Notes: a model not told the origin generated them from the letters alone. A stretch of DNA of 64,000 bases from Patescibacteria group bacterium (GCA_041664365.1 JBAYKW010000007.1:434-64433), one strand, 5' to 3'. Positions 1-24,434 are shown, counted from the stretch's first letter. Program-made: numbers and translations.

Positions 1-1124
1 TCCTTGCCGTAATTTAAATCTTTCATTAATTTTGTCGGTGCATTGCGCAGGACCAATGGCACACCCAGACTGCTGGTTTCTTGTGCGTCTCTCGCCGCTT
101 TCTCGTAGGCAGTATAGAGAGTATTAGATTTTTTTGCCTGGGCCAGATAAACCACCACCTGCGCCAGAGCAAGCTTGCCTTCGGGCATACCAATAAAGTG
201 CACGGCGTCTTTCGCGGCATTGGCATAAACCAAAGCTTTGTTATCCGCCAAGCCGATATCTTCCGAAGCAAAGCGTACCAGCCTCCTGGCAACATATAAT
301 GGATCCTCGCCGGCTTCCAGCATTCTGGCCAGCCAATAAAGGGCCGCGTCTGCATCCGAGTCTCTCAAACATTTATGCAAAGCGGAAATAATATTGTAAT
401 GCTCTTCACCATTTTTATCGTAGTATAAAATGGTATTCTGGATTGCTTCTTTTATATCTTTTTCATTCAATTCATAGTTCTTCTTTCCATTACTGGCGAT
501 CTCAATCGTAGTTAAAAGACTGCGCGCATCACCACCGGAAAATTTAATCAGAACATTCTTCCCTTTACGGTTTATTTTTAATTTTTGCTCGCCCAGTCCG
601 CGCGTTTTATCTTTCAGCGCCAGGTTAATAATTTTTTCCTGATCACTTCCGGATAATGGCTTAAAAGTCAGCACTCTGGATCTGGATAACAGCGCTGAGT
701 TAATAGTAAAAGACGGATTCTCTGTTGTAGCGCCGATCAGCGTCAAAATTCCCTTCTCTACATAAGGTAATAATACGTCCTGCTGAGCTTTATTAAATCT
801 GTGTATTTCATCCAGAAATAGAATTGTTTTCTGTTTCAAGAATTCCGCATCTTGTTTTGCATTTTCAGCGATCTTTTTTATTTCAGCCACTCCAATCAAG
901 ACGGCACTACTGGCGACAAACCGGCACTTAAATTCATTACTGAGTATCCTGGCTAGAGTTGTTTTACCGATCCCCGGCGGCCCCCAGAAGATCAAAGATG
1001 CAAGCGTCTGATTGGCAATCATCTGTTCCAATATCTTATCTTTGGCCAGAATATGTTCCTGCCCAAAAAATTCCGATAATTTTTGTGGCCTCAATCTCTC
1101 CGCTAATGGACTTAATTCTTTCAT
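1..1124 (-). CDS. rarA: Replication-associated recombination protein A (AAA+ ATPase RarA/MgsA); C-terminus runs off the window
   Basis: Own reverse-complement translation from the ATG at 1124-1122: MKELSPLAERLRPQKLSEFFGQEHILAKDK...WGPPGIGKTTLARIL...ATTENPSF...; Walker A present; the start overlaps the UDG stop as ATGA. Not in the ORF track because it has no stop inside the window. Confidence 0.85.
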   Translation of the reverse strand, partial: MKELSPLAERLRPQKLSEFFGQEHILAKDKILEQMIANQTLASLIFWGPPGIGKTTLARILSNEFKCRFVASSAVLIGVAEIKKIAENAKQDAEFLKQKTILFLDEIHRFNKAQQDVLLPYVEKGILTLIGATTENPSFTINSALLSRSRVLTFKPLSGSDQEKIINLALKDKTRGLGEQKLKINRKGKNVLIKFSGGDARSLLTTIEIASNGKKNYELNEKDIKEAIQNTILYYDKNGEEHYNIISALHKCLRDSDADAALYWLARMLEAGEDPLYVARRLVRFASEDIGLADNKALVYANAAKDAVHFIGMPEGKLALAQVVVYLAQAKKSNTLYTAYEKAARDAQETSSLGVPLVLRNAPTKLMKDLNYGK

Positions 1125-7366: not shown

Positions 7367-7395
7367 TTGACAACTTTGTGACAATGATATATCTT
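7367..7395 (+). promoter_or_regulatory. Putative sigma70 promoter (TTGACA -35; TATATC/TATCTT -10 candidates) driving high-GC island 1
   Basis: cTTGACAactttgtgacaatgaTATATCtt read directly from the sequence. Confidence 0.3.
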
Positions 7396-7530
7396 TACTT
7401 AATTAAAGTGCTTTATTACGATAAAGTACCAATCGTTCCTTGATAAGTGAATCATGCGGAATATACCCAAAAAACAAACGACTTTCGGTACAAACCACGA
7501 TCCTCAACCCAAAGACAGGGAGGTGTCATC

Positions 7531-7773
7531 ATGACGATTGACTCGACCAGTATTATTACAGCCCTCAACAACCTGAGCGGAGTCACTCACATTTCGGAAA
7601 ACGGAGGTCTGACGGTCCGAATTCCCGACAACAGCGGGAAAACTGTTCACGTTGCCGTGGACCGCCTTACCGGCATCTGCACCTCGGACGGTCAGGTGGT
7701 CGGAACCCTCCCCACCAGCGAGATCAGCCAGGCGCTTCCTAACTCCATCTTCCCCCACAACCAGAAACGGTGA
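7531..7773 (+). CDS. Small hypothetical protein (80 aa), high-GC; paralog of the next gene
   Basis: Shine-Dalgarno GGGAGG 7 nt before the ATG; shares the motif V.V.R(L/M)TG.CT with the 7845 gene. Confidence 0.5.
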   Translation: MTIDSTSIITALNNLSGVTHISENGGLTVRIPDNSGKTVHVAVDRLTGICTSDGQVVGTLPTSEISQALPNSIFPHNQKR

Positions 7774-7844
7774 GTCGTTCCCCACCAACACTCTCCTCGT
7801 CCGATGACGCGTTCATTCGGAACGCACAGCACAGGAGGGTTACC

Positions 7845-8114
7845 ATGACCAGGCAGCTCATCATCGCCGAGATCTATAGGTACATCCGGTCCATTCAGGA
7901 CCAGGAGCTCGGCGCATGCATCGACGTTACCATCCCTTGGGGTAGGCAAGGTGAGATTTCCGTCCGCGTCGAGCGGATGACCGGTAAGTGCACTAATCTG
8001 CACACCGACATGGAGATGCTGACCATCGACCCTAAAGCCCTCGACGCGGCATTTGCCGTCCGAGCAACGAAGCACGGCATCAATGGAACCGAATCCATGG
8101 GAGCACACGCATGA
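7845..8114 (+). CDS. Small hypothetical protein (89 aa), high-GC; paralog of the 7531 gene
   Basis: Shine-Dalgarno AGGAGGG before the ATG; IDVTIPWGRQGEISVRVERMTGKCTN aligns with LTVRIPDNSGKTVHVAVDRLTGICTS. Confidence 0.5.
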   Translation: MTRQLIIAEIYRYIRSIQDQELGACIDVTIPWGRQGEISVRVERMTGKCTNLHTDMEMLTIDPKALDAAFAVRATKHGINGTESMGAHA

Positions 8115-8154
8115 TTTGCATATCGTTCGTCCCCACCGGACGAAACACAAAAAA

Positions 8155-8207: not shown

Positions 8208-9504
8208 CCTTCAAGATTTCACCGATAGTATAAAGTGAGCCGGTAACAATTACTGTTCCATTATTCCCCGCCAATCTCTTCGCCATCACGATACCATCAT
8301 CCAATGAAGCGGTAATTATCCCTTTTGGATAATATTTTTTTAATTTTGATGCACGATAAAAATCCCTAAGATCATCAATCTTCGTTACATCCGGAAAAAT
8401 CAGTTTATCAGAAAATTTTGCCAGCGTACGCAATATAGCCGGTACCTGTTTTTTCGTGTTCTTTATACTGACTAGAAAAACAGTATTATGCGGTTTAACA
8501 CCCACGTCATGCAGTGCCTTGACTAATGCCCTGATGCTGAATAGATTATGCGCACCGTCCAGGATCACCATGGGATTTTTCTGCCAGATCTGGAATCTTG
8601 CCTCGTGCGCGGTGTTTCCGGCAGCTTTAATAATAGCCTGTGGCGGTATCACAAAACCCTGATTACTAAGTTGCCTGGCGGAAGCAAAAGCACAGGCAAA
8701 GTTTTCCGCCTGATGCCTGCCGATCAAGGACAGTCTCAGATTTCGATATATATCACCCTGATAACTGATATTAATATAAGTACCGGTCAAATCGACTTTT
8801 TTGATTGAATATTTTAGATCCTTGTTAATATTAATCAATGAGGCTTTTTTAGCTTTCACTTTATTTTTTATTACTTTCAGCGCGTTACCCTTAGCTGCTG
8901 TTGAAACTGCGTCATTGTTTTGGATTATGCCGGCCTTTTCTCCCGCTATTTTGGTAATTGTATTACCCAGGGATTTTGTGTGATCAAAGCTAATATTGGT
9001 AATGATTTTATTTTTCAAACCAACCGCCGTTGTTGCATCTAGCCGACCGCCCATGCCCACTTCGATAACAACTACATCTGTTTTTTCTTCGGCGAAATAC
9101 TGGACCGCCAGAGCGGTAGTAAACTCAAAAAATGTAACGTGATCTCCGCGTTTGCCGATTTCTTTCAGTAAGGGGATCATCCGGTCGCCGATTTTTTTCA
9201 CTCTCCGAAGAGTAATCGGCCTACCGTTGATCATAATCCTTTCACTGGGCGATACTAAATACGGAGAATAAAATGATCCGGTCTTATACCCAGCTTCCCT
9301 CAGAATCTTTTCTAGAAATGCCACGGCAGAACCCTTTCCTTTTGTGCCAGCTACCTGCACACCGATCAGTTTTTTTTCGGGACTGCCCATTTTCTGAAGC
9401 AGTGATTTGACCCGGTGCAGTTGCAAAAAATCCTTACTGACAAAGCGCGGGTCGTAAGGTTTCAGATATTTTTGGTACTGATTGAATATTTCTTTTGCTC
9501 TCAC
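8197..9504 (-). CDS. folC: Folylpolyglutamate synthase / dihydrofolate synthase
   Basis: Mur-ligase P-loop VAGTKGKGS; 435 aa. Confidence 0.8.
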   Translation of the reverse strand: MRAKEIFNQYQKYLKPYDPRFVSKDFLQLHRVKSLLQKMGSPEKKLIGVQVAGTKGKGSAVAFLEKILREAGYKTGSFYSPYLVSPSERIMINGRPITLRRVKKIGDRMIPLLKEIGKRGDHVTFFEFTTALAVQYFAEEKTDVVVIEVGMGGRLDATTAVGLKNKIITNISFDHTKSLGNTITKIAGEKAGIIQNNDAVSTAAKGNALKVIKNKVKAKKASLININKDLKYSIKKVDLTGTYINISYQGDIYRNLRLSLIGRHQAENFACAFASARQLSNQGFVIPPQAIIKAAGNTAHEARFQIWQKNPMVILDGAHNLFSIRALVKALHDVGVKPHNTVFLVSIKNTKKQVPAILRTLAKFSDKLIFPDVTKIDDLRDFYRASKLKKYYPKGIITASLDDGIVMAKRLAGNNGTVIVTGSLYTIGEILKEKK

Positions 9505-10334
9505 TATTTTTTACGCAACTGTTTTAATAATTTAATATCATTTTCTCTGCCTTCGGCAGGAGTTTCCAGAATAAAATCTACATTTCTTAATTTCGGATGG
9601 TTGATTAACGCCTCAAATCCATCTTTGCCAATCTCTCCTTGGCCGATATGTTCATGCCGGTCAACCTTGGCGTTTAGTTCTACTTTAGAATCATTGGCGT
9701 GGATTAATTGCAACAAATCAATCCCGACAACCTCATCAAACTTCTTGAGTGTTTCATCAACATCTTTTTTAGTCCGCAAATCATAACCGGAAGCAAACGC
9801 GTGTGCCGTATCAAAACAAACTGCCACTTTTTTATGATTTACTTTTTTTATAATCCTGCCAATCTCCTCGAAACTGTCACCGATAACACTCCCGGAGCCA
9901 GCAGCAATCTCCAATAAAAAAGTCGCTTTACCAGTATATCCTTTCAGTAATTCTTTTATTCCGTCTATTACCATTTGCAGTGCTTTTGCTCGCGTAAAAT
10001 CCTTTGATGAGCCTAAGTGGGTCATTACTGCTACAACACCTAATTGCGAGGCGCGATCCAATTCCTCACGAATAATACTGATAGAACCGTTCCGAACCCG
10101 ATCCTGTTTTGAAGCTAAATTAATATAGTAAGGTGTGTGAATATACGCCTTACCTAGTCCGCTAGCTTTAATATTTTTCTGAAATTTTTTTACAACTTCA
10201 TCGTTGATTTCAGGTGCTTTGCCTCCGCGCGGTGAACGCGAAAACATCTGGAAACATTCACAGTTTTCAGTAAAGGCATTCAGCGGAGCATTTTCCATTC
10301 CGCCGGCTATGGATACATGGGCGCCAATATTCAT
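9504..10334 (-). CDS. nfo: Endonuclease IV (deoxyribonuclease IV)
   Basis: MNIGAHVSIAGG...HANDSK...HEHIGQGEIG; Nfo metal-binding motifs. Confidence 0.85.
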   Translation of the reverse strand: MNIGAHVSIAGGMENAPLNAFTENCECFQMFSRSPRGGKAPEINDEVVKKFQKNIKASGLGKAYIHTPYYINLASKQDRVRNGSISIIREELDRASQLGVVAVMTHLGSSKDFTRAKALQMVIDGIKELLKGYTGKATFLLEIAAGSGSVIGDSFEEIGRIIKKVNHKKVAVCFDTAHAFASGYDLRTKKDVDETLKKFDEVVGIDLLQLIHANDSKVELNAKVDRHEHIGQGEIGKDGFEALINHPKLRNVDFILETPAEGRENDIKLLKQLRKK

Positions 10335-10362
10335 AGCCTAATTATAGCAGATGCCGACAAAA

Positions 10363-10391
10363 TTGACATTGAACTATTTCATTGTTATTAT
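10363..10391 (+). promoter_or_regulatory. Near-consensus sigma70 promoter (TTGACA, 17 bp spacer, TATTAT)
   Basis: aaTTGACAttgaactatttcattgtTATTATgg, about 65 nt upstream of the GTG at 10461. Confidence 0.5.
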
Positions 10392-10460
10392 GGCGACTCA
10401 GGTTAGTGCAAATTAGCATGAACCTAAACCCGCACATTTTAATGGTGGAAGGAGCCAGTC

Positions 10461-10868
10461 GTGGCTGACGATGGAAAGAAGCGACACGCTTTTGAATACC
10501 TTGTGCACTGCCTCATGGGAGACGTAGCACATGCTAGGGTATTGCGTACCCTAATCCAAACAGGGTTCGTTACCCACGAGGAATTGGGCATCAAGCCCGA
10601 AGACGTGGACACATTCCAAGCACTGTCCCGTATCGCGGACCCCAAAGAACGTGCCATTACGGCATTCCGCGGTTGCCGTGAAGGCAACGTTCTTGCCAAC
10701 TTCGGCGTGATCCAATTTCTTTTCCGTTCCCGCCAGATCAGGCCCACCGATCTGCGCGAGGGTGACGACAGCATCCTAAAGGTAGGCTCCGACCTGAGTC
10801 ATTTTCACAAAGCGCACACCGCACATCTCGCCAGGATTCTCCCATCGGAAAAATCCGCGCAAGACTAA
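10461..10868 (+). CDS. Hypothetical protein (135 aa), high-GC, GTG start
   Basis: Shine-Dalgarno GGAAGGAG 7 nt before the GTG; clean ORF ending at a terminator. Confidence 0.5.
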   Translation: MADDGKKRHAFEYLVHCLMGDVAHARVLRTLIQTGFVTHEELGIKPEDVDTFQALSRIADPKERAITAFRGCREGNVLANFGVIQFLFRSRQIRPTDLREGDDSILKVGSDLSHFHKAHTAHLARILPSEKSAQD

Positions 10869-10885
10869 CCCCTTGCGTTTTTTTA
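10857..10885 (+). terminator. Rho-independent terminator CGCAAG...CTTGCG + T7 (copy 1 of a duplicated terminator)
   Basis: Hairpin then TTTTTTT; near-identical copy at 11924-11951. Confidence 0.6.
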
Positions 10886-10937
10886 TTCTGCATATACAAA
10901 ATAAATCCGCCTCTGGCGGGTACTATGTTTATATCCA

Positions 10938-10966
10938 TTGACACTATGATTCAATCATGATAAATT
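10938..10966 (+). promoter_or_regulatory. Sigma70-like promoter (TTGACA, 17 bp spacer, TAAATT) with a perfect palindrome ATGATTcAATCAT in the spacer
   Basis: ccaTTGACActatgattcaatcatgaTAAATTcc. Confidence 0.45.
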
Positions 10967-10991
10967 CCACAACCTCCTCCTAGACAGTCTT

Positions 10992-11018
10992 CAGTTGTGC
11001 TCACGGTGAGGACAACTG
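10992..11018 (+). promoter_or_regulatory. 13-bp-arm near-perfect inverted repeat in the 5'UTR (CAGTTGTGCTCAC g GTGAGGACAACTG); operator or RNA hairpin
   Basis: One mismatch across 13-bp arms; lies between the promoter and the Shine-Dalgarno of the 11048 gene. Confidence 0.4.
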
Positions 11019-11047
11019 AATCACCTGTTTGTTCAGGGAGGAAACTA

Positions 11048-11341
11048 ATGACGTTTATTGGCAACACTCAACTCCCGAAATTCGGAGACATAATCCAGAT
11101 CACCATTCCCGGCAACCCCGGTTTCGTGCTGAAGGTCACCGTGATCTCCGAATGGGCCATCGACCAGGAGGAAGAAGAACACATCAGCTTCGTGTTTTTC
11201 CTGCCCCGTGACTCGTTCCCTCTGGTGTTCGCCCGTCGGGTCGTAACCCTGGACAAGACCAATGAGAAGTGGACCGTCCGCATCAAGAACGGCGAGTCCA
11301 CCATTATCCAGGAAGTCACCGTGAACATCCTCCGCGACTGA
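11048..11341 (+). CDS. Hypothetical protein (97 aa), high-GC
   Basis: Shine-Dalgarno AGGGAGG before the ATG; ORF ends at a terminator. Confidence 0.5.
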   Translation: MTFIGNTQLPKFGDIIQITIPGNPGFVLKVTVISEWAIDQEEEEHISFVFFLPRDSFPLVFARRVVTLDKTNEKWTVRIKNGESTIIQEVTVNILRD

Positions 11342-11367
11342 CTTCATCCCGCTCTTTCCCGCCACTC

Positions 11368-11391
11368 CACCATTTGGAATGGCTTTTTTTA
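11368..11391 (+). terminator. Terminator CCATTtggAATGG + T7 (copy 1 of the second duplicated terminator type)
   Basis: Hairpin plus T-run; similar copy at 11574-11602. Confidence 0.55.
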
Positions 11392-11422
11392 TTCTCACCA
11401 AAACGTAACCAATTATAGAAAG

Positions 11423-11450
11423 TTGACTTTCCATTCATAAAATATATAAT
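11423..11450 (+). promoter_or_regulatory. Consensus-like sigma70 promoter TTGACT, 16 bp spacer, TATAAT
   Basis: agTTGACTttccattcataaaataTATAATtt. Confidence 0.5.
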
Positions 11451-11456
11451 TTCTTT

Positions 11457-11602
11457 AGTCATACGTGGAGCAGGGGGTCTTCGTTTTGGACAGCATCCTC
11501 CACGGAGGGTGTCTGGGGTTAAAATCCCAGCCGGAGATCCCCTCTCCACCAAATATCAACGCTCTTTCCTAATCCATTCCTCCCTTTGGGATGGTTTTTT
11601 TT
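11457..11602 (+). ncRNA. Candidate structured RNA (small RNA or cis-regulatory leader) ending in an intrinsic terminator
   Basis: Transcript from the consensus promoter; nested helices (CTGGGGuuaaaauCCCAG, GGAGGG...CCCTCTCC); terminator hairpin plus T8 at 11574-11602; no convincing ORF. Confidence 0.35.
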
Positions 11603-11634
11603 ATTTTGACAGATTTTTTGCACCGTGTTATGTT

Positions 11635-11925
11635 ATGCCAACTGCCTTTCAGCAGAGAACCGACACCCGCGACTCAAGGAGAATAATATTGCTCTCGAAA
11701 CGCAGAATCAGAAGGCTCGTACGGCGCACCATCGCGTCATTTGTCGGCATTATTTTCGGTCTGGTTCCTGCCTGGTTCCTTCTTTATGATCTACACACAA
11801 CTCAAGGTAACAAACTCTATTTTGCCAAATGGTTATGGCCAATACTTACTGTGCAGTTCTTTCTGATCATTTTCACCTTCGCCTGGATCTGGGCGATCTG
11901 GACCAATCGGATCCCAGAACTCTAA
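11635..11925 (+). CDS. Small two-TM membrane protein (96 aa), high-GC; no obvious Shine-Dalgarno
   Basis: Arg-rich N-terminus then two strongly hydrophobic helices; the ORF ends exactly at a terminator. Confidence 0.35.
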   Translation: MPTAFQQRTDTRDSRRIILLSKRRIRRLVRRTIASFVGIIFGLVPAWFLLYDLHTTQGNKLYFAKWLWPILTVQFFLIIFTFAWIWAIWTNRIPEL

Positions 11926-11951
11926 CGCAAGCTGACCCTTGCGTTTTTTTA
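11924..11951 (+). terminator. Terminator CGCAAG...CTTGCG + T7 (copy 2)
   Basis: Near-identical to 10857-10885. Confidence 0.6.
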
Positions 11952-12014
11952 TACAAAGAAAAAAGGCGACCCTGCAGAGGTATCGCCTAAAACTCTCATA
12001 AACAGCAACGATGC

Positions 12015-12521
12015 TTAACGCGGACGATGGTGAGGATTGTACTTGCGGAAAGGCTCCCGCAGTTCTTGTGCCCGATAGAGCACGAGGCTCAGTTCGAGCA
12101 TCTCGTCCAGGGAATCGACCAGAAACACATTGGCAAGCCGGAGCTTGCGAAGGTGTTCGCGCACGAGTGCGCGTGCGCGCAGACTCTCCTTGCGCGCAAC
12201 GGGATCGTTGAGCTCATCGTTCAGCTTGTCATCGATCATGATGACGAACTCCCGATGATCATCGAGCCGGATGGCGTTCAGGATGCTGAACCCGGTTTCA
12301 GCCAGCGACCCGGTCCCGTAGGACTCGTCGGTCACGGGGAAGAGGATGACTGCATCCTCAGCGAGATGCTGTGCTTCCTCCACGGCACATTCGGGGGTCC
12401 AGTCCTCGACTTGGGGATTGAAGAAAGCGACACCAAGATCCTGGTACAGCTTGATGAACTTCGCGCGCCAGGTACTTGATCCACAGGTCCCGAACAATCC
12501 GATTGTTAGCATTACGCTCAC
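12015..12521 (-). CDS. Nucleoside 2-deoxyribosyltransferase-like (Nuc_deoxyrib_tr superfamily) protein, high-GC
   Basis: IGLFGTCG...DESYGTGSLAETGFSILNAIRLDD resembles the D.GT..E.G.A core of PF05014, assigned from memory; 168 aa. Confidence 0.45.
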   Translation of the reverse strand: MSVMLTIGLFGTCGSSTWRAKFIKLYQDLGVAFFNPQVEDWTPECAVEEAQHLAEDAVILFPVTDESYGTGSLAETGFSILNAIRLDDHREFVIMIDDKLNDELNDPVARKESLRARALVREHLRKLRLANVFLVDSLDEMLELSLVLYRAQELREPFRKYNPHHRPR

Positions 12522-12597
12522 CCTTTCATCCTTTTGTCCACTGACACGAGTGAACAGTCATCACTAGTCGCCACGAATGACATTGTGACGACACGAT

Positions 12598-12626
12598 AGG
12601 ATATCATAAAATATGTTTCATGTCAA
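12598..12626 (-). promoter_or_regulatory. Sigma70-like promoter (minus strand: TTGACA, 17 bp spacer, TATCCT) for the 12015-12521 gene
   Basis: Reverse complement reads TTGACAtgaaacatattttatgaTATCCT. Confidence 0.4.
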
Positions 12627-12654
12627 GACTTAATCATATTGTATAAATAAAAAA

Positions 12655-12690
12655 GAGGCGGCAACGAAGATGAAGCCGCCCTGTGCCTGA
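12655..12690 (-). terminator. Intrinsic terminator (GGCGGCttcatcttcgttGCCGCC + T-run on the minus strand)
   Basis: Hairpin followed by TCTTTTTT when read on the minus strand. Confidence 0.55.
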
Positions 12691-12997
12691 CTGGGATCAT
12701 TTGTCCCTCTTCCTGGGCTAGCCAGGCGATAGCCGAAAATGCGTGATGCATTTCCCTACCATTCGCCTTTTCAGGCGGGGGAAAAGGAGCTCGAGCTCTC
12801 TCTGTGGAGAAAGAAATGATAGCGACCCTTCTCTCGCAAGGGGAGTGTTTGCCTCGGCGCAGTGTGGTCCGGCTCCGTATCCTTGCCTTTTCCCCGAAAC
12901 AGATCGGGGACGGAGAGACGCTCCTCTCGACGCTGACTTTCAGGCGATCTGGGCCGTCCAGTGAATCATACGTCACCTCCCTTCCGGTTTTGGACGC
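12691..12997 (-). ncRNA. Candidate independent ~340-nt GC-rich transcript (small RNA, or mRNA of a doubtful small ORF) between its own promoter and terminator
   Basis: Minus-strand promoter at 13004-13031 and terminator at 12655-12690; strong Shine-Dalgarno AAGGGAGG plus ATG at 12976, but that ORF reads through the terminator. Confidence 0.3.
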
Positions 12998-13003
12998 ATA
13001 TTT

Positions 13004-13031
13004 ATATTAACATGAAAACATGATTAATCAA
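13004..13031 (-). promoter_or_regulatory. Sigma70-like promoter (minus strand: TTGATT, 16 bp spacer, TAATAT)
   Basis: Reverse complement reads TTGATTaatcatgttttcatgtTAATAT. Confidence 0.4.
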
Positions 13032-13076
13032 TGTCGGCCTGATACAGACTGCATATTATATTCTGCTCGCATATAA

Positions 13077-13115
13077 AAAAAGAGTCGCATGCAGTATGAG
13101 CAATTGACTCTAGCG
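13077..13115 (-). terminator. Terminator for the OMP gene (GAGTC...GACTC hairpin + T7 on the minus strand)
   Basis: A7 on the plus strand immediately 5' of the hairpin. Confidence 0.45.
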
Positions 13116-13133
13116 AAAGAACATGCCCGATCT

Positions 13134-14036
13134 TCAGTTGAGATCGAACTGCACAGACCAGATAATTGTCGGGTGGCTGTGCTGCTGAAGCACCAGATTG
13201 GGTTGGAACTTCAGTGCCCCCTGTCGTAGCTCGGCACCGACAACAACCTCGACATCATCCGTCACCAGTTGTTCTTGTGCCATCGTCAGTAGTGCAAATT
13301 GAGTCCGCTGGGTACAGCGCGCGGTCAGTGCGAATGATTCGTTCAAATCCGCCACAGCAGTAACCAGCCAGCCCCGGCTGTGTTGGAAATCTCTCCGCCA
13401 CAGCATGGCGGATTCCACACTCAGTCCAGATGCCGGACAAACCGACAACTTGCCGTAATACAGTGTACGCTCACCCGGCGGCTGACGACCGGACTGAAAT
13501 GCTCCGGAGAGACGCAGTGGTCCAATCCAGGACGACGTAACAGATGCTGTGAAGTCGCGTGACTGGTTGTCGTCCGGGACATTATGTCCCGATCCGTTGA
13601 ATACGCACGACTGGAATGATCCGAGCCGATTCGCGAACAGGATCGATACGCCGATGTCATACTGGTCAGTAATGTAATAGTCCGTCAACGCATAGGCTAC
13701 GAACCGCTTTTTCCCCGGCGAGGATTCAACCTGCATCATCGGGTTGGTGAACTGACCCAGACGCAATTTGCTCCTGCCTAAGATAGGCAGAGTCATCCGG
13801 TATTCGAGATAGACCTGAAGTGGGATTGTGTTCTTCCCCACCTGCGCCTCACCGAACAGTGTGAGACTGTCCATACTCGCGGTAAGGAATGGCCGAAGCC
13901 GGCGTAGTTCGAAGCCCTGCCCCGCATCCTGAATCTGACCGTAACCGCCGGCATGCAGAACAGGAAAATATTCCCCCGTCTGAGCCATGGCGCTCGCTGT
14001 ACAGAACAGCATTACTACCAGAACCACGTTTCTCAT
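13134..14036 (-). CDS. Secreted putative outer-membrane beta-barrel (porin-like) protein, high-GC
   Basis: Signal peptide MRNVVLVVMLFCTASAMA/QT; amphipathic beta-strand periodicity; aromatic-rich C-terminus ...WSVQFDLN. Confidence 0.5.
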   Translation of the reverse strand: MRNVVLVVMLFCTASAMAQTGEYFPVLHAGGYGQIQDAGQGFELRRLRPFLTASMDSLTLFGEAQVGKNTIPLQVYLEYRMTLPILGRSKLRLGQFTNPMMQVESSPGKKRFVAYALTDYYITDQYDIGVSILFANRLGSFQSCVFNGSGHNVPDDNQSRDFTASVTSSWIGPLRLSGAFQSGRQPPGERTLYYGKLSVCPASGLSVESAMLWRRDFQHSRGWLVTAVADLNESFALTARCTQRTQFALLTMAQEQLVTDDVEVVVGAELRQGALKFQPNLVLQQHSHPTIIWSVQFDLN

Positions 14037-14087
14037 GCGCGTCCCTCTCTTTCTGGATGTACACACCCTCCTTAAGCAAAGTTGTGT

Positions 14088-14116
14088 ATCTTAAACAAAC
14101 TTGCAGAGGATGTCAA
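14088..14116 (-). promoter_or_regulatory. Sigma70-like promoter (minus strand: TTGACA, 17 bp spacer, TAAGAT) for the OMP gene
   Basis: Reverse complement reads TTGACAtcctctgcaagtttgttTAAGAT. Confidence 0.4.
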
Positions 14117-14135
14117 GGATCATTTTATAACCAAA

Positions 14136-14170
14136 AACCACCCTAACAAACGTAACCAGGGTGGTTTTTT
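14136..14170. terminator. Bidirectional terminator AACCACCCT...AGGGTGGTT flanked by A5 and T6 (tig terminator)
   Basis: Lies between the tig stop at 14173 and the island. Confidence 0.6.
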
Positions 14171-14172
14171 AA

Positions 14173-15465
14173 TTACTCTTGAGTAGCCAGCTTGTAAAGC
14201 ATATCAATCACTTTCTGATTGACCATCACATTTTTTACGAAACTGTGATAGTCAGGATAGTCTAGCTGTTTTAACATTTCATCATTACCCTGCTGTTCGT
14301 ACATTTTTTTGCTCTTATCTATTTCTTCATGAATCTCCGCTTCCGTCGCTTCGATTTTTTCCAGTTCAGAAACTTTCCGGATCAACAACGCTGTCCTAAC
14401 TCTCTTTTCCGCCCGCGGTTCAAAGGACGTTCTCAGTTCTGCTTCAGTTTTTTTGATACTCTGTAGATAGTCTTCGTATTTCAATCCCTGATTTTCAAAA
14501 TCGTGACGTAATTCGTGAATCATTTTGTCTATTTCGGAAGCCACCAGGTCTTCCGGAAATTCACCGAACTTGCTTTTGCCCGCAATGGACTCCAGCATTT
14601 CCAGCTCAACCCGCTGACGTTCTTTGTTTTCCAATTCCTGAAGCAAGTTTTTACTGATCTGGTCTTCCAGATCCTTAATCGACTTGAACGGACCGAATGA
14701 TTTCGCAAATTCATCATTGGCTTCCGGTTTTTCAATCTTGAAAACTCCATTCACTTTAATCCGGAACTCGGCCGGTTTACCGGCCAGGATTTTTTGGAAA
14801 TATTCCTTCGGAAACTTCAGTTCAAATTCCTTGGTTTCACCTTTTTTCATCCCAATCAATTTATCTTCAAACCCGGGGATGAAATTTCCCTCGCCGATGA
14901 TAATCGGCTGGTTCTTACCCTGTCCGCCTTCGATGGGAACTTTATTTTGAAATACTTCAATATCTACTTCCGCTTTATCACCTTTTTGTACTTCCCGGTC
15001 AACGAGAGCTTCTTTACTGCGCATCTTTCTTAAATCATCCACCGCTTTCCCCAATTCTTTCGGATCTACTACCACTTTCTTCTTTTTGACTTTTACTGAT
15101 TTATAATCTCCAATTTCTACAGTCGGCAGCAGTGACACGGTTGCTTTATAGATAAAGGGATTGCCTAAAGCCTGTTTGATTATATCAATCTTTGGTGTTG
15201 AAATGATAATTATTTTTTCCTGTTCAATCGCTTGACCAATACTCATCTGGATCGCAAAATCAGCGGCCTCGGCCATAATCTGGTCCGCTCCCACCTTTTT
15301 TATTACCACATCATCCGGCACCTTACCTGGCCTGAATCCGTCAATGCGGATACCGGCACCGATCTTTTTGAGTGCCGCCTGGTAATATTTCTCTAATTCT
15401 TCAGCCGGAAGCTCAATGGTTAATTCCATTTGACCTTTTGGCAGCTGGTTCTTTGTTATTTGCAT
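14173..15465 (-). CDS. tig: Trigger factor
   Basis: 430 aa; N-terminal ribosome-binding, FKBP-like and C-terminal domains; low-GC native composition. Confidence 0.85.
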   Translation of the reverse strand: MQITKNQLPKGQMELTIELPAEELEKYYQAALKKIGAGIRIDGFRPGKVPDDVVIKKVGADQIMAEAADFAIQMSIGQAIEQEKIIIISTPKIDIIKQALGNPFIYKATVSLLPTVEIGDYKSVKVKKKKVVVDPKELGKAVDDLRKMRSKEALVDREVQKGDKAEVDIEVFQNKVPIEGGQGKNQPIIIGEGNFIPGFEDKLIGMKKGETKEFELKFPKEYFQKILAGKPAEFRIKVNGVFKIEKPEANDEFAKSFGPFKSIKDLEDQISKNLLQELENKERQRVELEMLESIAGKSKFGEFPEDLVASEIDKMIHELRHDFENQGLKYEDYLQSIKKTEAELRTSFEPRAEKRVRTALLIRKVSELEKIEATEAEIHEEIDKSKKMYEQQGNDEMLKQLDYPDYHSFVKNVMVNQKVIDMLYKLATQE

Positions 15466-19056: not shown

Positions 19057-19085
19057 TTGACGTGTCTTGGATAATACTCTAGTAT
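19057..19085 (+). promoter_or_regulatory. Putative sigma70 promoter (TTGACG, 17 bp spacer, TAGTAT) for island 3
   Basis: aTCTTGACGtgtcttggataatactcTAGTATgg. Confidence 0.35.
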
Positions 19086-19201
19086 GGTAATTACATTGAC
19101 AATTTGTTCAAGTTATCAAGAGTGATTCAGATCCCGCCTTTGCGGGAATACGCAGGACCGGCCTGCTAAAAACTGAATCCAGCAACCCTCTCCAAGGAGG
19201 A

Positions 19202-19237
19202 ATGGGTGCTAACTCCGGCCCAATGCGGGGAAGATGA
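19202..19237 (+). CDS. Candidate 11-aa leader peptide (MGANSGPMRGR) with a strong Shine-Dalgarno in the long 5'UTR
   Basis: AAGGAGGA 1 nt before the ATG; followed by a weak hairpin plus T5 at about 19257-19276. Confidence 0.2.
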   Translation: MGANSGPMRGR

Positions 19238-19305
19238 TAGAAGTCAGATGCTTTCCTTAGGGGAAGTTTTTGTTTTAACAAGTCACTCCAGCCGGGAGGA
19301 ACCCC

Positions 19306-19653
19306 ATGGCCAGCCCAACTAGCAATCAGGTTTTTCACGCACTGTGCGTCCGCGCCGAAGCATCCGGTCACCATTCACATGGACATCCGCTCTGTGTCCT
19401 GATTCAGGGACGCGAGGCGTTCCTCTGCGAACGTCACGACACTCCCGAAGGTTGGGTTACGCGGACAGTCTGCATTCCACCGGAGGATATCCTCAACTAC
19501 GTCGGCGAAGAAGACGCTGACGCAATTCGGTCGAAATTCCCGATCTTCTCCGATCAGTTCACCGTCAACGGTGACAACTACCCCCAGCCGGAAGGATTCG
19601 GGGCTCCCGTGAGAATCGAACCGAAACCGGAGCCTGCACCGCAGGCAAGCTAA
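19306..19653 (+). CDS. Hypothetical protein (115 aa), high-GC, His/Cys-rich N-terminus (HHSHGHPLC...C)
   Basis: Shine-Dalgarno GGGAGG before the ATG. Confidence 0.5.
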   Translation: MASPTSNQVFHALCVRAEASGHHSHGHPLCVLIQGREAFLCERHDTPEGWVTRTVCIPPEDILNYVGEEDADAIRSKFPIFSDQFTVNGDNYPQPEGFGAPVRIEPKPEPAPQAS

Positions 19654-19664
19654 GGAGCGAAACC

Positions 19665-19865
19665 ATGTCACTGCGCGACGGGCTCACACTTGCTGAGGCG
19701 ACCGTTCGCCAACAGCACCTGGACCAGGTACACCAGTCCAATTCTCTGACTGAAGACGAATGCGTCATTCGGAGAGTTATCGCTCAGTACGAAGCGGGCG
19801 AAGACACTCCGGCTACCCGGGTACTCTCCGACTGGATCGCCAGTCGCACGGCACAATCCACCTAA
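19665..19865 (+). CDS. Hypothetical small protein (66 aa), high-GC
   Basis: Shine-Dalgarno AAGGAG 8 nt before the ATG; 11 nt after the previous stop (operon-like). Confidence 0.45.
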   Translation: MSLRDGLTLAEATVRQQHLDQVHQSNSLTEDECVIRRVIAQYEAGEDTPATRVLSDWIASRTAQST

Positions 19866-19887
19866 TCGTTCATTCACCCAAATCGAA

Positions 19888-19921
19888 AGGACCATGGTTC
19901 CCCACGGCCCTTTTTTTTATT
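19888..19921 (+). terminator. Putative terminator (GGACCATGGTTCC palindrome region + T8)
   Basis: T8 run after GC-rich dyad; stem is imperfect. Confidence 0.35.
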
Positions 19922-23412: not shown

Positions 23413-23443
23413 AAATAAAAAAAGCTACCTTGGAAAGATAGCT
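23413..23443 (-). terminator. Terminator for prs (AGCTA...TAGCT + T8 on the minus strand)
   Basis: A8 on the plus strand precedes the hairpin. Confidence 0.5.
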
Positions 23444-24434
23444 AGCGCTGTTCGAAGCAGATTGCCGAGACGGAAGTCTCTGTGGTAATTGCCTCGATGG
23501 CGGGGGCAAAAACATCCGCGAATGAACAAACCTTGATATTCGAGCCGAAACCCGCCTTCATGCCGATAGGGATGGTGTCTCCCACAATCAGCGACTTCAG
23601 ACGAGACTGCCCGATCTTGCCGACAGCATCCCCGGAGAATACCGGATGTGCTGCGATCCCGTGAACAACCCTGGCACCGCTATCCAGCACGGCTTCCGCG
23701 GCACCGATCATCGTACCACCACCATCGACCATGTCATCCAGAATGATGCAGATGCACCCCTTCGGATCACCGTAGATCTCGTTGACCCGGGAATGTCCGT
23801 GTCCACTACGTTCCTTGTCGATGATCACGACACGATCTCCCGGGAAACGGTGTTTGCGGTAGTTACGGACCATTTTACCGCCATTGATATCCGAAGATAC
23901 CAGCGCAAACGGCGTATCCGGTCCGTATTCTTCCCGTTCACTCGCCACGATCCGCTTGATCTCCGGCACCATTACCGGATACATGTACAGGTGGTCACAA
24001 GGGATGTTGAAGAACCCTTGGATCTGCGCGGCGTGCAGTTCCGCCGTGACTACCCGGTTGGCACCGGCGGCAGCCAAAAGGTCCGCGACCAGTCTCGCGG
24101 TGATCGGCACCCTACCTTCCTTCTTGCGGTCCTGGCGCGCACAGCCGAAATACGGCATCACTGCCGTAACCGCGGCGGCCGAAGCTCGCTTGGCAGCATC
24201 AATCATCACGAGCAGCTGCATCAGATTGTCGGCGGGTGGCTGAGTGGACTGGATGATGAAGACGTGTCTTCCACGCACATTCGCATCCAGCTGAGCGAAA
24301 GGTTCTCCGTCAGCAAACGGAGTGGTTTTGGCCGGGCTCAGAGGAACGCCCAGTTTGGACGCAATCGCCTGAGCCAGCTCAGGGCACGATCCGCCGGAAA
24401 AAAGCACGATTCTGGAGAGATCCATTGTCGCCAC
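23442..24434 (-). CDS. prs: Ribose-phosphate pyrophosphokinase, high-GC
   Basis: 330 aa; PRPP-binding loop and full Prs architecture; composition far from flanking genes. Confidence 0.85.
   Translation of the reverse strand: MATMDLSRIVLFSGGSCPELAQAIASKLGVPLSPAKTTPFADGEPFAQLDANVRGRHVFIIQSTQPPADNLMQLLVMIDAAKRASAAAVTAVMPYFGCARQDRKKEGRVPITARLVADLLAAAGANRVVTAELHAAQIQGFFNIPCDHLYMYPVMVPEIKRIVASEREEYGPDTPFALVSSDINGGKMVRNYRKHRFPGDRVVIIDKERSGHGHSRVNEIYGDPKGCICIILDDMVDGGGTMIGAAEAVLDSGARVVHGIAAHPVFSGDAVGKIGQSRLKSLIVGDTIPIGMKAGFGSNIKVCSFADVFAPAIEAITTETSVSAICFEQR

Follow-up and report, generated by a model that had tools for sequence, protein, structure and literature searches.

What kind of DNA fills the gap between nfo and tig in a member of the Patescibacteria (Candidate Phyla Radiation, CPR), where the guanine plus cytosine (GC) content climbs from about 0.40 in the surroundings to 0.50–0.58 across positions 10400–14100? 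Patescibacteria are reduced, host-dependent organisms whose accessory genes are almost entirely unannotated. We have analyzed a stretch of 64,000 nucleotides (from here on, the window) of a metagenome-assembled genome of this group, in which the gap corresponds to positions 10335–14172, and the presence of a GC-rich island between the two genes was confirmed. Its open reading frames (ORFs) are NCBI loci WCW66_04860 to _04880 and the contig is ENA ERZ27249449 k141_641551. We count seven units in the gap, of which four (p135, p97, RNA145 and TM, the last coding for the protein TM78) are on the plus strand and three (p168, RNA350 and p310) on the minus strand. An earlier, sequence-only reading had described independent units, three on each strand; their independence was borne out, the count was not. 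We consider it probable, with moderate confidence, that the gap is a lineage-specific flexible hotspot of self-contained monocistronic cassettes in a clade of Patescibacteria.

The first line of evidence is the comparison with relatives. In five other genomes the gene order folC-nfo ... tig-AMP-ligase-acyltransferase-CarS-H+-pyrophosphatase-NusA-phosphoribosyl pyrophosphate (PRPP) synthase is kept, with trigger factors 81–96% identical to that of the window. Between nfo and tig, the window and these five genomes carry six different cargo sets. The gap reads nfo-p135-tig in L055, which belongs to the same metagenome assembly as the window; nfo-p135-TM-tig in L056; nfo-p135-p97-sigma70 (a 442-amino acid (aa) factor)-TM-tig in L057; nfo-p135-TM followed by a PHA_gran_rgn-like ORF, small ORFs, a helix-turn-helix (HTH) plus Peptidase_M78 pair and tig in L059; and, in L005, nfo followed by ORFs of 360, 70, 93, 324 and 125 aa, RNA350, p304 (a p310 homolog) and tig. 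The loci from outside the sample of the window come from Logan SRR2544004, NCBI GCA_041662505.1, JGI 3300037046 and ENA ERZ27237645. Fixed core flanks and differing cargo in relatives, the features that define a flexible hotspot, are thus both found, and the suggestion of an accessory hotspot stands. The idea that the whole set forms one island is not supported: p135 and TM are resident genes of the clade, and p168 occurs alone in 43 other genomes. Compared with L005, the window is homologous in DNA from tig across p310 and RNA350, and this homology ends exactly at the RNA350 terminator; the remaining halves of the two islands share nothing, even at the protein level (tblastx).

The second line of evidence is the density of predicted transcription signals. 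Between 9500 and 15500 we counted 19 promoter-like sites (7.4 ± 2.5 expected) and 15 terminator-like sites (6.5 ± 2.9 expected), and each of the seven units has its own predicted sigma-70-like promoter and intrinsic terminator. The −35 and −10 boxes of p135, p97, TM, RNA350 and p310 are kept in orthologous units elsewhere, while the spacers drift. This conservation module by module agrees with the earlier claim that every unit has its own promoter and terminator and that the region is a mosaic, not an operon. The T-run of a terminator abuts the TTGACA box of the next unit, resulting in a recurrent TTTTTTATTTTGACA joint. The terminators of p135 and TM share CGCAAG..CTTGCGTTTTTTTAT in the window, L056, L057 and L059, and the two units are directly adjacent in L059; the shared terminator may reflect either common descent or a preferred recombination joint. 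A cassette would accordingly combine one gene with a promoter and a terminator of its own, be packed end to end with its neighbors, and be transcribed independently by the sigma-70-type machinery of the host. Individual cassettes would be acquired, lost or replaced singly, presumably by recombination, which could take place either in the conserved flanks, following uptake of DNA, or at the joints between terminator and promoter. The gap itself codes for no recombinase. The features are collected in Table 1.

Table 1. Predicted features of the nfo–tig gap and its two flanking genes, in window coordinates. Promoters are given as −35 box, spacer length and −10 box; GC3, GC content at third codon positions; nt, nucleotides.
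Feature	Position	Strand	Remarks
nfo (AP_endonuc_2)	9504–10334	−	Left flank
p135 promoter	10363–10391	+	TTGACA-17-TATTAT with TG; boxes kept in L055 and L056
p135, 135 aa	10461–10868	+	GTG start behind GGAAGGAG
p135 terminator	10857–10886	+	CGCAAG..CTTGCG plus T-run, overlaps the stop codon; same design in L055, L056, L057 and L059
p97 promoter	10938–10966	+	TTGACA-17-TAAATT with TG; boxes identical in L057
p97 structured 5′ leader	10967–11047	+	5′ CCUCCUCC pairs with Shine-Dalgarno GGGAGG around a 15-bp hairpin (predicted fold)
p97, 97 aa	11048–11341	+	GC3 0.78 in window and L057
p97 terminator	11350–11398	+	Also first copy of a direct repeat of about 50 nt; same terminator after p97 in L057
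RNA145 promoter	11423–11450	+	TTGACT-16-TATAAT, 11/12 consensus positions
RNA145, candidate RNA of about 145 nt	11457–11602	+	18-bp closing stem around two hairpins, then own terminator
TM promoter	11606–11634	+	TTGACA-17-TATGTT with TG; abuts the preceding T-run; kept in L056, L057 and L059
TM78, 78 aa	11689–11925	+	TTG start behind AGGAG; basic N-terminus, two hydrophobic segments
TM terminator	11924–11952	+	CGCAAG..CTTGCG plus T-run
p168 terminator	11959–11989	−	AGGCGA..TCGCCT plus U6, read directly from the sequence
p168, 165 aa from ATG 12512	12015–12512	−	NDT/TIR-fold protein, putatively of family PF15891
p168 promoter	12598–12626	−	TTGACA-17-TATCCT with TG
RNA350, noncoding RNA of about 350 nt	12647–12998	−	Own terminator: stem 12682–12655, U-run 12654–12649
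RNA350 promoter	13004–13031	−	TTGATT-16-TGtTAATAT, extended −10; kept in L005 as TGCTATTAT
p310 terminator	13075–13112	−	AGAGUC..GACUCU plus U7; GC..CTCTTTTTT end conserved in L005
p310, 300 aa from ATG 14036	13134–14036	−	Sec signal peptide (..SAMA/QT), beta-rich body
p310 promoter	14088–14116	−	TTGACA-17-TAAGAT
tig (trigger factor)	14173–15465	−	Right flank

Substitution patterns demonstrate purifying selection on the proteins and on RNA350. The ratio of nonsynonymous to synonymous rates (dN/dS) is 0.02 for tig and 0.04 for nfo among the core genes, 0.07 for p310, 0.11–0.15 for p135 and 0.13–0.20 for TM78. Six homologs of p135 were found, all of exactly 135 aa and 62–82% identical, and the gene adjoins nfo in every homolog contig examined (L055–L059). 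Orthologs of TM78 in L056, L057 and L059 are 59–75% identical. The earlier description of a mini-protein of 96 aa with two transmembrane (TM) segments holds for its two hydrophobic segments; its length is most likely 78 aa from the TTG at 11689, a start conserved in four genomes, and the ATG at 11635 lies directly against the −10 box. For TM78 we found only sub-threshold Pfam matches, nothing of use in NCBIfam or PHROGs and no PADLOC match, and for p135 no match in Pfam, NCBIfam or PADLOC and no significant one in PHROGs or PDB, also when a p135 profile was compared with PDB. Judging from these homologs, p135 and TM78 are clade-restricted orphans under purifying selection.

The p97 unit evolves differently. 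The only homolog, at the same position after p135 in L057, is 52% identical in protein (74% in DNA over the module from promoter to terminator) and the dN/dS of the pair is 0.44, which marks p97 as an apparently fast-evolving orphan. It has no family match in Pfam, NCBIfam, PHROGs or PADLOC, apart from one borderline PHROG of unassigned function (E 1e-3), and with that reservation the two small proteins of no known family that had been reported between nfo and tig, p135 and p97, remain such. Over about 90 nt, the p97 leader differs from that of L057 by a few substitutions and one 4-nt indel. Its minimum free energy (MFE) is −32.5 kcal/mol (z −3.5), and translation of p97 is probably gated by this leader, which in the modeled fold would sequester the Shine-Dalgarno sequence.

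Two of the units appear to be RNA genes. RNA350 could be compared between the window and L005, where it is 76% identical over 343 aligned columns. The values just outside are 55% in the upstream spacer and 43% downstream of the terminator, and the fourfold-degenerate sites of tig, nfo, p310 and the AMP-ligase gene are 31–42% identical between the same genomes, that is, near saturation. The indels are of 1, 1, 1, 2, 3 and 8 nt and the substitutions are spread 27/28/29 over the codon phases. Because the conservation is above neutral, the indels break the frame and codon periodicity is absent, we interpret RNA350 as a noncoding RNA under selection, in line with the separate minus-strand transcript of about 340 nt that had been proposed from the sequence. 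An alignment fold (RNAalifold) has 89 pairs, of which 8 show compensatory double changes (0–2 in slid controls); one of these 8 belongs to a long-range stem between the 5′ and 3′ parts. As there are only two sequences and the structure was derived from the same two, this covariation is no more than suggestive. The fold of the single sequence is not exceptional (z −1.4). Neither nhmmer searches of 100 fetched loci and the window nor a scan of viral contigs gave further copies, and a metagenome scan with a conserved RNA350 block of 22 bases retrieved only L054, of the same strain as L005.

In AT-rich genomes, structured RNAs are overrepresented in long GC-rich intergenic regions (PMC6429828, PMC8723152). 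Like the large GC-rich classes raiA, OLE, ROOL and GOLLD of Rfam, RNA350 would be a stand-alone, GC-rich RNA bounded by promoter and terminator in an AT-rich host (PMC6429828), and it is conserved with compensatory changes. It differs from these classes in having no Rfam 15 match even at E up to 10, and in being present in only two lineages of one clade, always beside the porin-like gene. By eye we found none of the hallmark motifs of RNase P RNA, transfer-messenger RNA, 6S RNA and signal recognition particle RNA, and searches with ARAGORN and Rfam were negative too. A CsrB-like sponge was rejected as well, with a mild excess of GGA motifs (11 versus 6.4 ± 2.1 expected) and no CsrA known here, and so was a protein gene, given the phase-even substitutions and the frame-breaking indels. 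Inside RNA350 (12965–12936, minus strand) there is a 9-codon mini-ORF with a perfect Shine-Dalgarno sequence (GGGAGG), 7 nt and AUG; its place and length are kept in L005 and the peptides are unrelated (MIHWTAQIA vs. MAFRTYRAI).

The second of these RNAs, RNA145, is exceptional in its own fold, with an MFE of −60.8 kcal/mol (z −5.1) that none of 200 shuffled sequences equaled. Together with the near-consensus promoter and a terminator found by sequence, this supports the promoter-driven structured RNA of about 145 nt of the sequence-only reading. Its terminator region (11560–11610) repeats the p97 terminator in diverged form, and this direct repeat is the only notable one in the island; such a copy suggests that the RNA145 unit arose or was inserted via local duplication. 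No homolog was detected in the 100 fetched loci (nhmmer) or in viral contigs. RNA145, RNA350 and the p97 leader had no match in Rfam 15, either at the gathering threshold over the window or at E up to 10 over 10300–14250, where only three chance-level matches appeared. A riboswitch or attenuator for TM was rejected: the TM orthologs in L056, L057 and L059 keep promoter and leader and have no RNA145. On its fold and signals, RNA145 is a candidate orphan RNA, a very stable hairpin.

The gene next to tig, p310, has only 3 close homologs among 5.8 billion proteins, and a profile search gave 34 representatives. Its promoter boxes, GAGAGGG Shine-Dalgarno and ATG are invariant in L005, so that the start is most likely at ATG 14036, with 300 aa. 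By eye, the N-terminus is a Sec signal peptide (MRNVVLVVMLFCTASAMA/QT), with an equivalent peptide in P0003. There is no direct Pfam match of p310 itself. Porin_O_P is matched by 4 of 25 members of its family and by the longer relatives P0162 and P0165 (best E 1.5e-19), and the p310 profile finds OprP (2o4v) in PDB with E 0.015. The signal-peptide beta-barrel protein that had been claimed is thus supported through its family members as a distant Porin_O_P relative, and we propose p310 as a candidate secreted, Porin_O_P-like beta-barrel. Structure prediction gave no usable check: for p310, the AlphaFold2 model, built from 3 sequences, reached a predicted local distance difference test (pLDDT) score of 30 and contained beta hairpins only. 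The signal peptide and the all-beta prediction are what p310 has in common with Porin_O_P (PF07396; OprP, PDB 2o4v); it differs from OprP in its size, about 300 aa versus 411 aa in chain 2o4v, in a C-terminus (..FDLN) that does not end in an aromatic residue, and in a host lineage described as monoderm. Described members of the CPR are monoderm (PMC8871954), and a porin-like barrel in such a lineage is unexpected. We found nothing specific in the literature on porins in Patescibacteria.

The remaining gene, p168, belongs to a much larger family. The claim that it resembles Nuc_deoxyrib_tr proteins was right about the fold, which is of the flavodoxin-like nucleoside deoxyribosyltransferase (NDT) type, and not about the length of 168 aa, since the most likely product has 165 aa. 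Against Pfam PF15891 (Nuc_deoxyri_tr2) it scores 28.6 bits (cutoff 30, E 1.8e-6), and for most of the listed homologs a match to PF15891 is precomputed. The fold is almost as good a match to TIR domains as to NDT. All 26 aligned members have E75, in the motif SL[AS]E.G, and this residue is presumably the catalytic acid, as we assume from NDT and Rcl enzymes. The family has at least 655 proteins; the best 120 listed are 61–73% identical and come from many classes of Patescibacteria, those with a name all being Patescibacteria. We examined 43 loci in GTDB genomes, including that of the cultured Minisyncoccus archaeiphilus, and none had another island gene within 6 kb of p168 (tblastn). From these comparisons p168 would probably be an N-glycosidase or transferase acting on nucleotides, in salvage or modification. 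It departs from the NDT-like and TIR-fold members of known structure (PDB 4mcj, YtoQ 8of6 and MilB 4ohr) by only 13–19% identity and by an extra C-terminal helical segment. PDB sequence searches with p168 and its profile gave nothing useful, and neither did the literature on PF15891 in Patescibacteria offer anything specific.

The p168 family was also found in 39 IMG/VR contigs and in Lak megaphages and jumbo phages, and on this distribution it appears to circulate between Patescibacteria and huge phages. In two phage contigs the homologs are 56–58% identical: in L068 (4397–5504) the gene follows a phage PDDEXK nuclease gene and SbcCD-like genes, near a T4 baseplate gene, and in L077 (3424–5661) it is near a deoxynucleoside monophosphate kinase gene. 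These neighborhoods suggest that the homologs take part in the nucleotide metabolism of huge phages. In several Patescibacteria genomes the gene is much richer in GC than its flanks; in two of them the p168 homolog is a single-gene GC spike, with GC 0.58 over flanks of 0.34 and GC3 0.80 in L011 (301–783), and GC 0.61 over flanks of 0.38 and GC3 0.85 in L018 (3950–4438), a pattern that fits recent transfer of a single cassette.

A family carried by phages, GC values 10–18 points above the host, and units that, with a promoter and a terminator each, resemble phage morons could also mean that a prophage, plasmid or integrative element of high GC content once inserted between nfo and tig and has since decayed to a remnant. 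We find this doubtful. Searches of the five proteins against Pfam, NCBIfam and PHROGs gave no integrase, transposase, structural or replication gene, no pair of direct or inverted repeats brackets 10335–14172, and the DNA of the island resembles none of 50,697 phage and 72,556 plasmid records. Scans of viral contigs revealed no relatives of p135, TM or p97, and p135 is resident at nfo–tig in L055, L056, L057 and L059, with TM in the last three.

Anti-phage defense is a further alternative, in which p168, with its TIR/NDT fold, would be an effector that cleaves NAD or depletes nucleotides, with the other units as partners. The gap does behave like a defense hotspot, the fold of p168 would be suitable, and the gap of L059 holds (10296–11129) an HTH_3 gene and then a Peptidase_M78 gene that match CapH and CapP of PADLOC (capP E 2.8e-31), a regulator pair of cyclic oligonucleotide-based antiphage signaling system (CBASS)-type systems beside which no effector was recognized. 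For the gap of the window the defense reading is not supported: none of the five proteins encoded there matches PADLOC, and PADLOC-DB 2.0 gave only chance-level scores for p168 and p310 (E 0.036 and 0.057) and nothing for p135, p97 and TM. The high identity of the best 120 p168 homologs across many classes is what one would expect of a conserved enzyme and not of a fast-turnover immune effector, and in the 43 loci no sensor or effector partner is conserved beside p168. We therefore regard a defense island as unlikely.

That the island is an artifact, GC-rich foreign DNA joined to a Patescibacteria contig, is very unlikely, although the compositional break is sharp, the Logan assembly splits at about 10436–10464 and at 14215, and porin-like genes are not expected where a lineage has been described as monoderm (PMC8871954). 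L001, a 3780-nt contig of the Logan assembly, is 100% identical to window positions 10436–14215 and continues from the island into tig, and a second one bears nfo and overlaps L001 by 29 nt. Both the ENA MEGAHIT contig and Logan L001 contain the island–tig join, two assemblies that probably share their source reads, and it is chiefly the conserved synteny in other samples, more than this agreement, that makes a chimera improbable: the same cassettes, with promoters of the same style, are found between the same core genes in other samples and sources. Scarcely credible, finally, is a locus of GC-rich structured RNA genes with chance open frames, for which one could invoke the enrichment of such RNAs in GC-rich intergenic regions of AT-rich genomes (PMC6429828, PMC8723152), the two RNA units and the long open frames on both strands of GC-rich stretches, and against which stand dN/dS well below 1 for p135, TM and p310, the fixed length of the p135 homologs, the existence of protein families for p168 and p310, and the conserved Shine-Dalgarno sequences and start codons.

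Returning to the flexible hotspot of monocistronic cassettes, several points count against it. The transcription of the units is deduced from their sequence, the porin assignment of p310 is indirect and its structure prediction failed, and only two distinct sequences are available for RNA350 and a single one for RNA145. The mechanism of gain and loss is not demonstrated, and differential loss from a larger ancestral cluster could explain most of what we see. The last point is the persistent GC richness. The cassettes stay GC-rich in most lineages (GC3 0.56–0.78; the exception is p135 in L059, with 0.47) despite near-saturated synonymous sites; an old horizontal transfer with subsequent amelioration does not by itself account for this, since the cassettes are GC-rich over a synonymous divergence of the core genes above 1. 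Possible reasons are recurrent exchange with a GC-rich pool, selection acting on synonymous positions, or a GC bias linked to recombination.

The anomaly is not exclusive to the gap. ORFs of the window with GC3 above 0.55 are the island genes, orphans at 26–355, 7447–8150 and 19306–19895, and PRPP synthase only, and the small orphan ORFs at 7447–8150 and 19306–19653 are kept in most related genomes with a similarly high GC content. The second GC-rich patch (7447–8150, GC 0.55–0.58) is flanked by folC and a DUF5672 gene. In L005 and L055–L059 it is likewise conserved and rich in GC, and there is a promoter-like site at 7367–7395. Its plus strand has two ORFs, of 108 aa and about 89 aa, and an overlapping one of 152 aa lies on the minus strand; none has a Pfam match, and the patch may code in either strand or frame, or for an RNA. 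The third (19057–19895) has orphan ORFs of 115 aa (19306–19653, plus strand; dN/dS 0.19–0.28) and 66–75 aa (19668–19895), both conserved in relatives, and a promoter-like site (19057–19085) and a terminator-like hairpin (19250–19267) that could bound an RNA or leader of about 180 nt. PRPP synthase (23442–24434), a housekeeping-type gene, shares the compositional anomaly of the cassettes, with 58% GC (GC3 0.66) versus about 41% for the genome and 0.55 in the L005 ortholog. At the edge of the window (26–355) there is one more GC-rich orphan, a minus-strand ORF of 109 aa with GC3 0.62 and no Pfam match.

Flexible islets between core genes are a known kind of locus, as in the defense and accessory hotspots of enterobacteria and Pseudomonas. 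Like them, the gap has fixed flanks (folC-nfo and tig-AMP-ligase) that are housekeeping genes, and a cargo that differs and includes regulators and, in one genome, CapH/CapP-like genes. Unlike them, the gap of the window has no integrase, att sites or known defense gene, the cargo consists of single genes or RNAs with their own promoter and terminator, the host is a member of the Patescibacteria, and the cassettes stay GC-rich. The promoter-gene-terminator units, their deviant composition and a p168 family common to phages are reminiscent of phage morons, from which the locus is set apart by flanks that are chromosomal and by most cassettes having no viral relatives. New are the two unclassified RNAs, the conserved leader, the orphan proteins, the NDT-fold enzyme shared with phages and the CPR porin-like protein. 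One could go further and imagine a clade-wide pool of autonomous GC-rich cassettes that would move among gaps, genomes and phages without a dedicated recombinase, with the pair of RNA350 and the porin-like protein acting at the interface with the host cell, a scenario that we offer as speculative and rather improbable.

The nfo–tig locus provides a clean and comparable example of how Patescibacteria vary, with single autonomous cassettes probably swapped in one gap between fixed core genes. It also offers several candidates: two unclassified RNA genes, a leader that would hide a ribosome binding site, a family of nucleotide enzymes shared with megaphages, and a porin-like secreted protein. If the GC-rich cassettes do form a mobile pool, this would bear on how these symbionts acquire genes.

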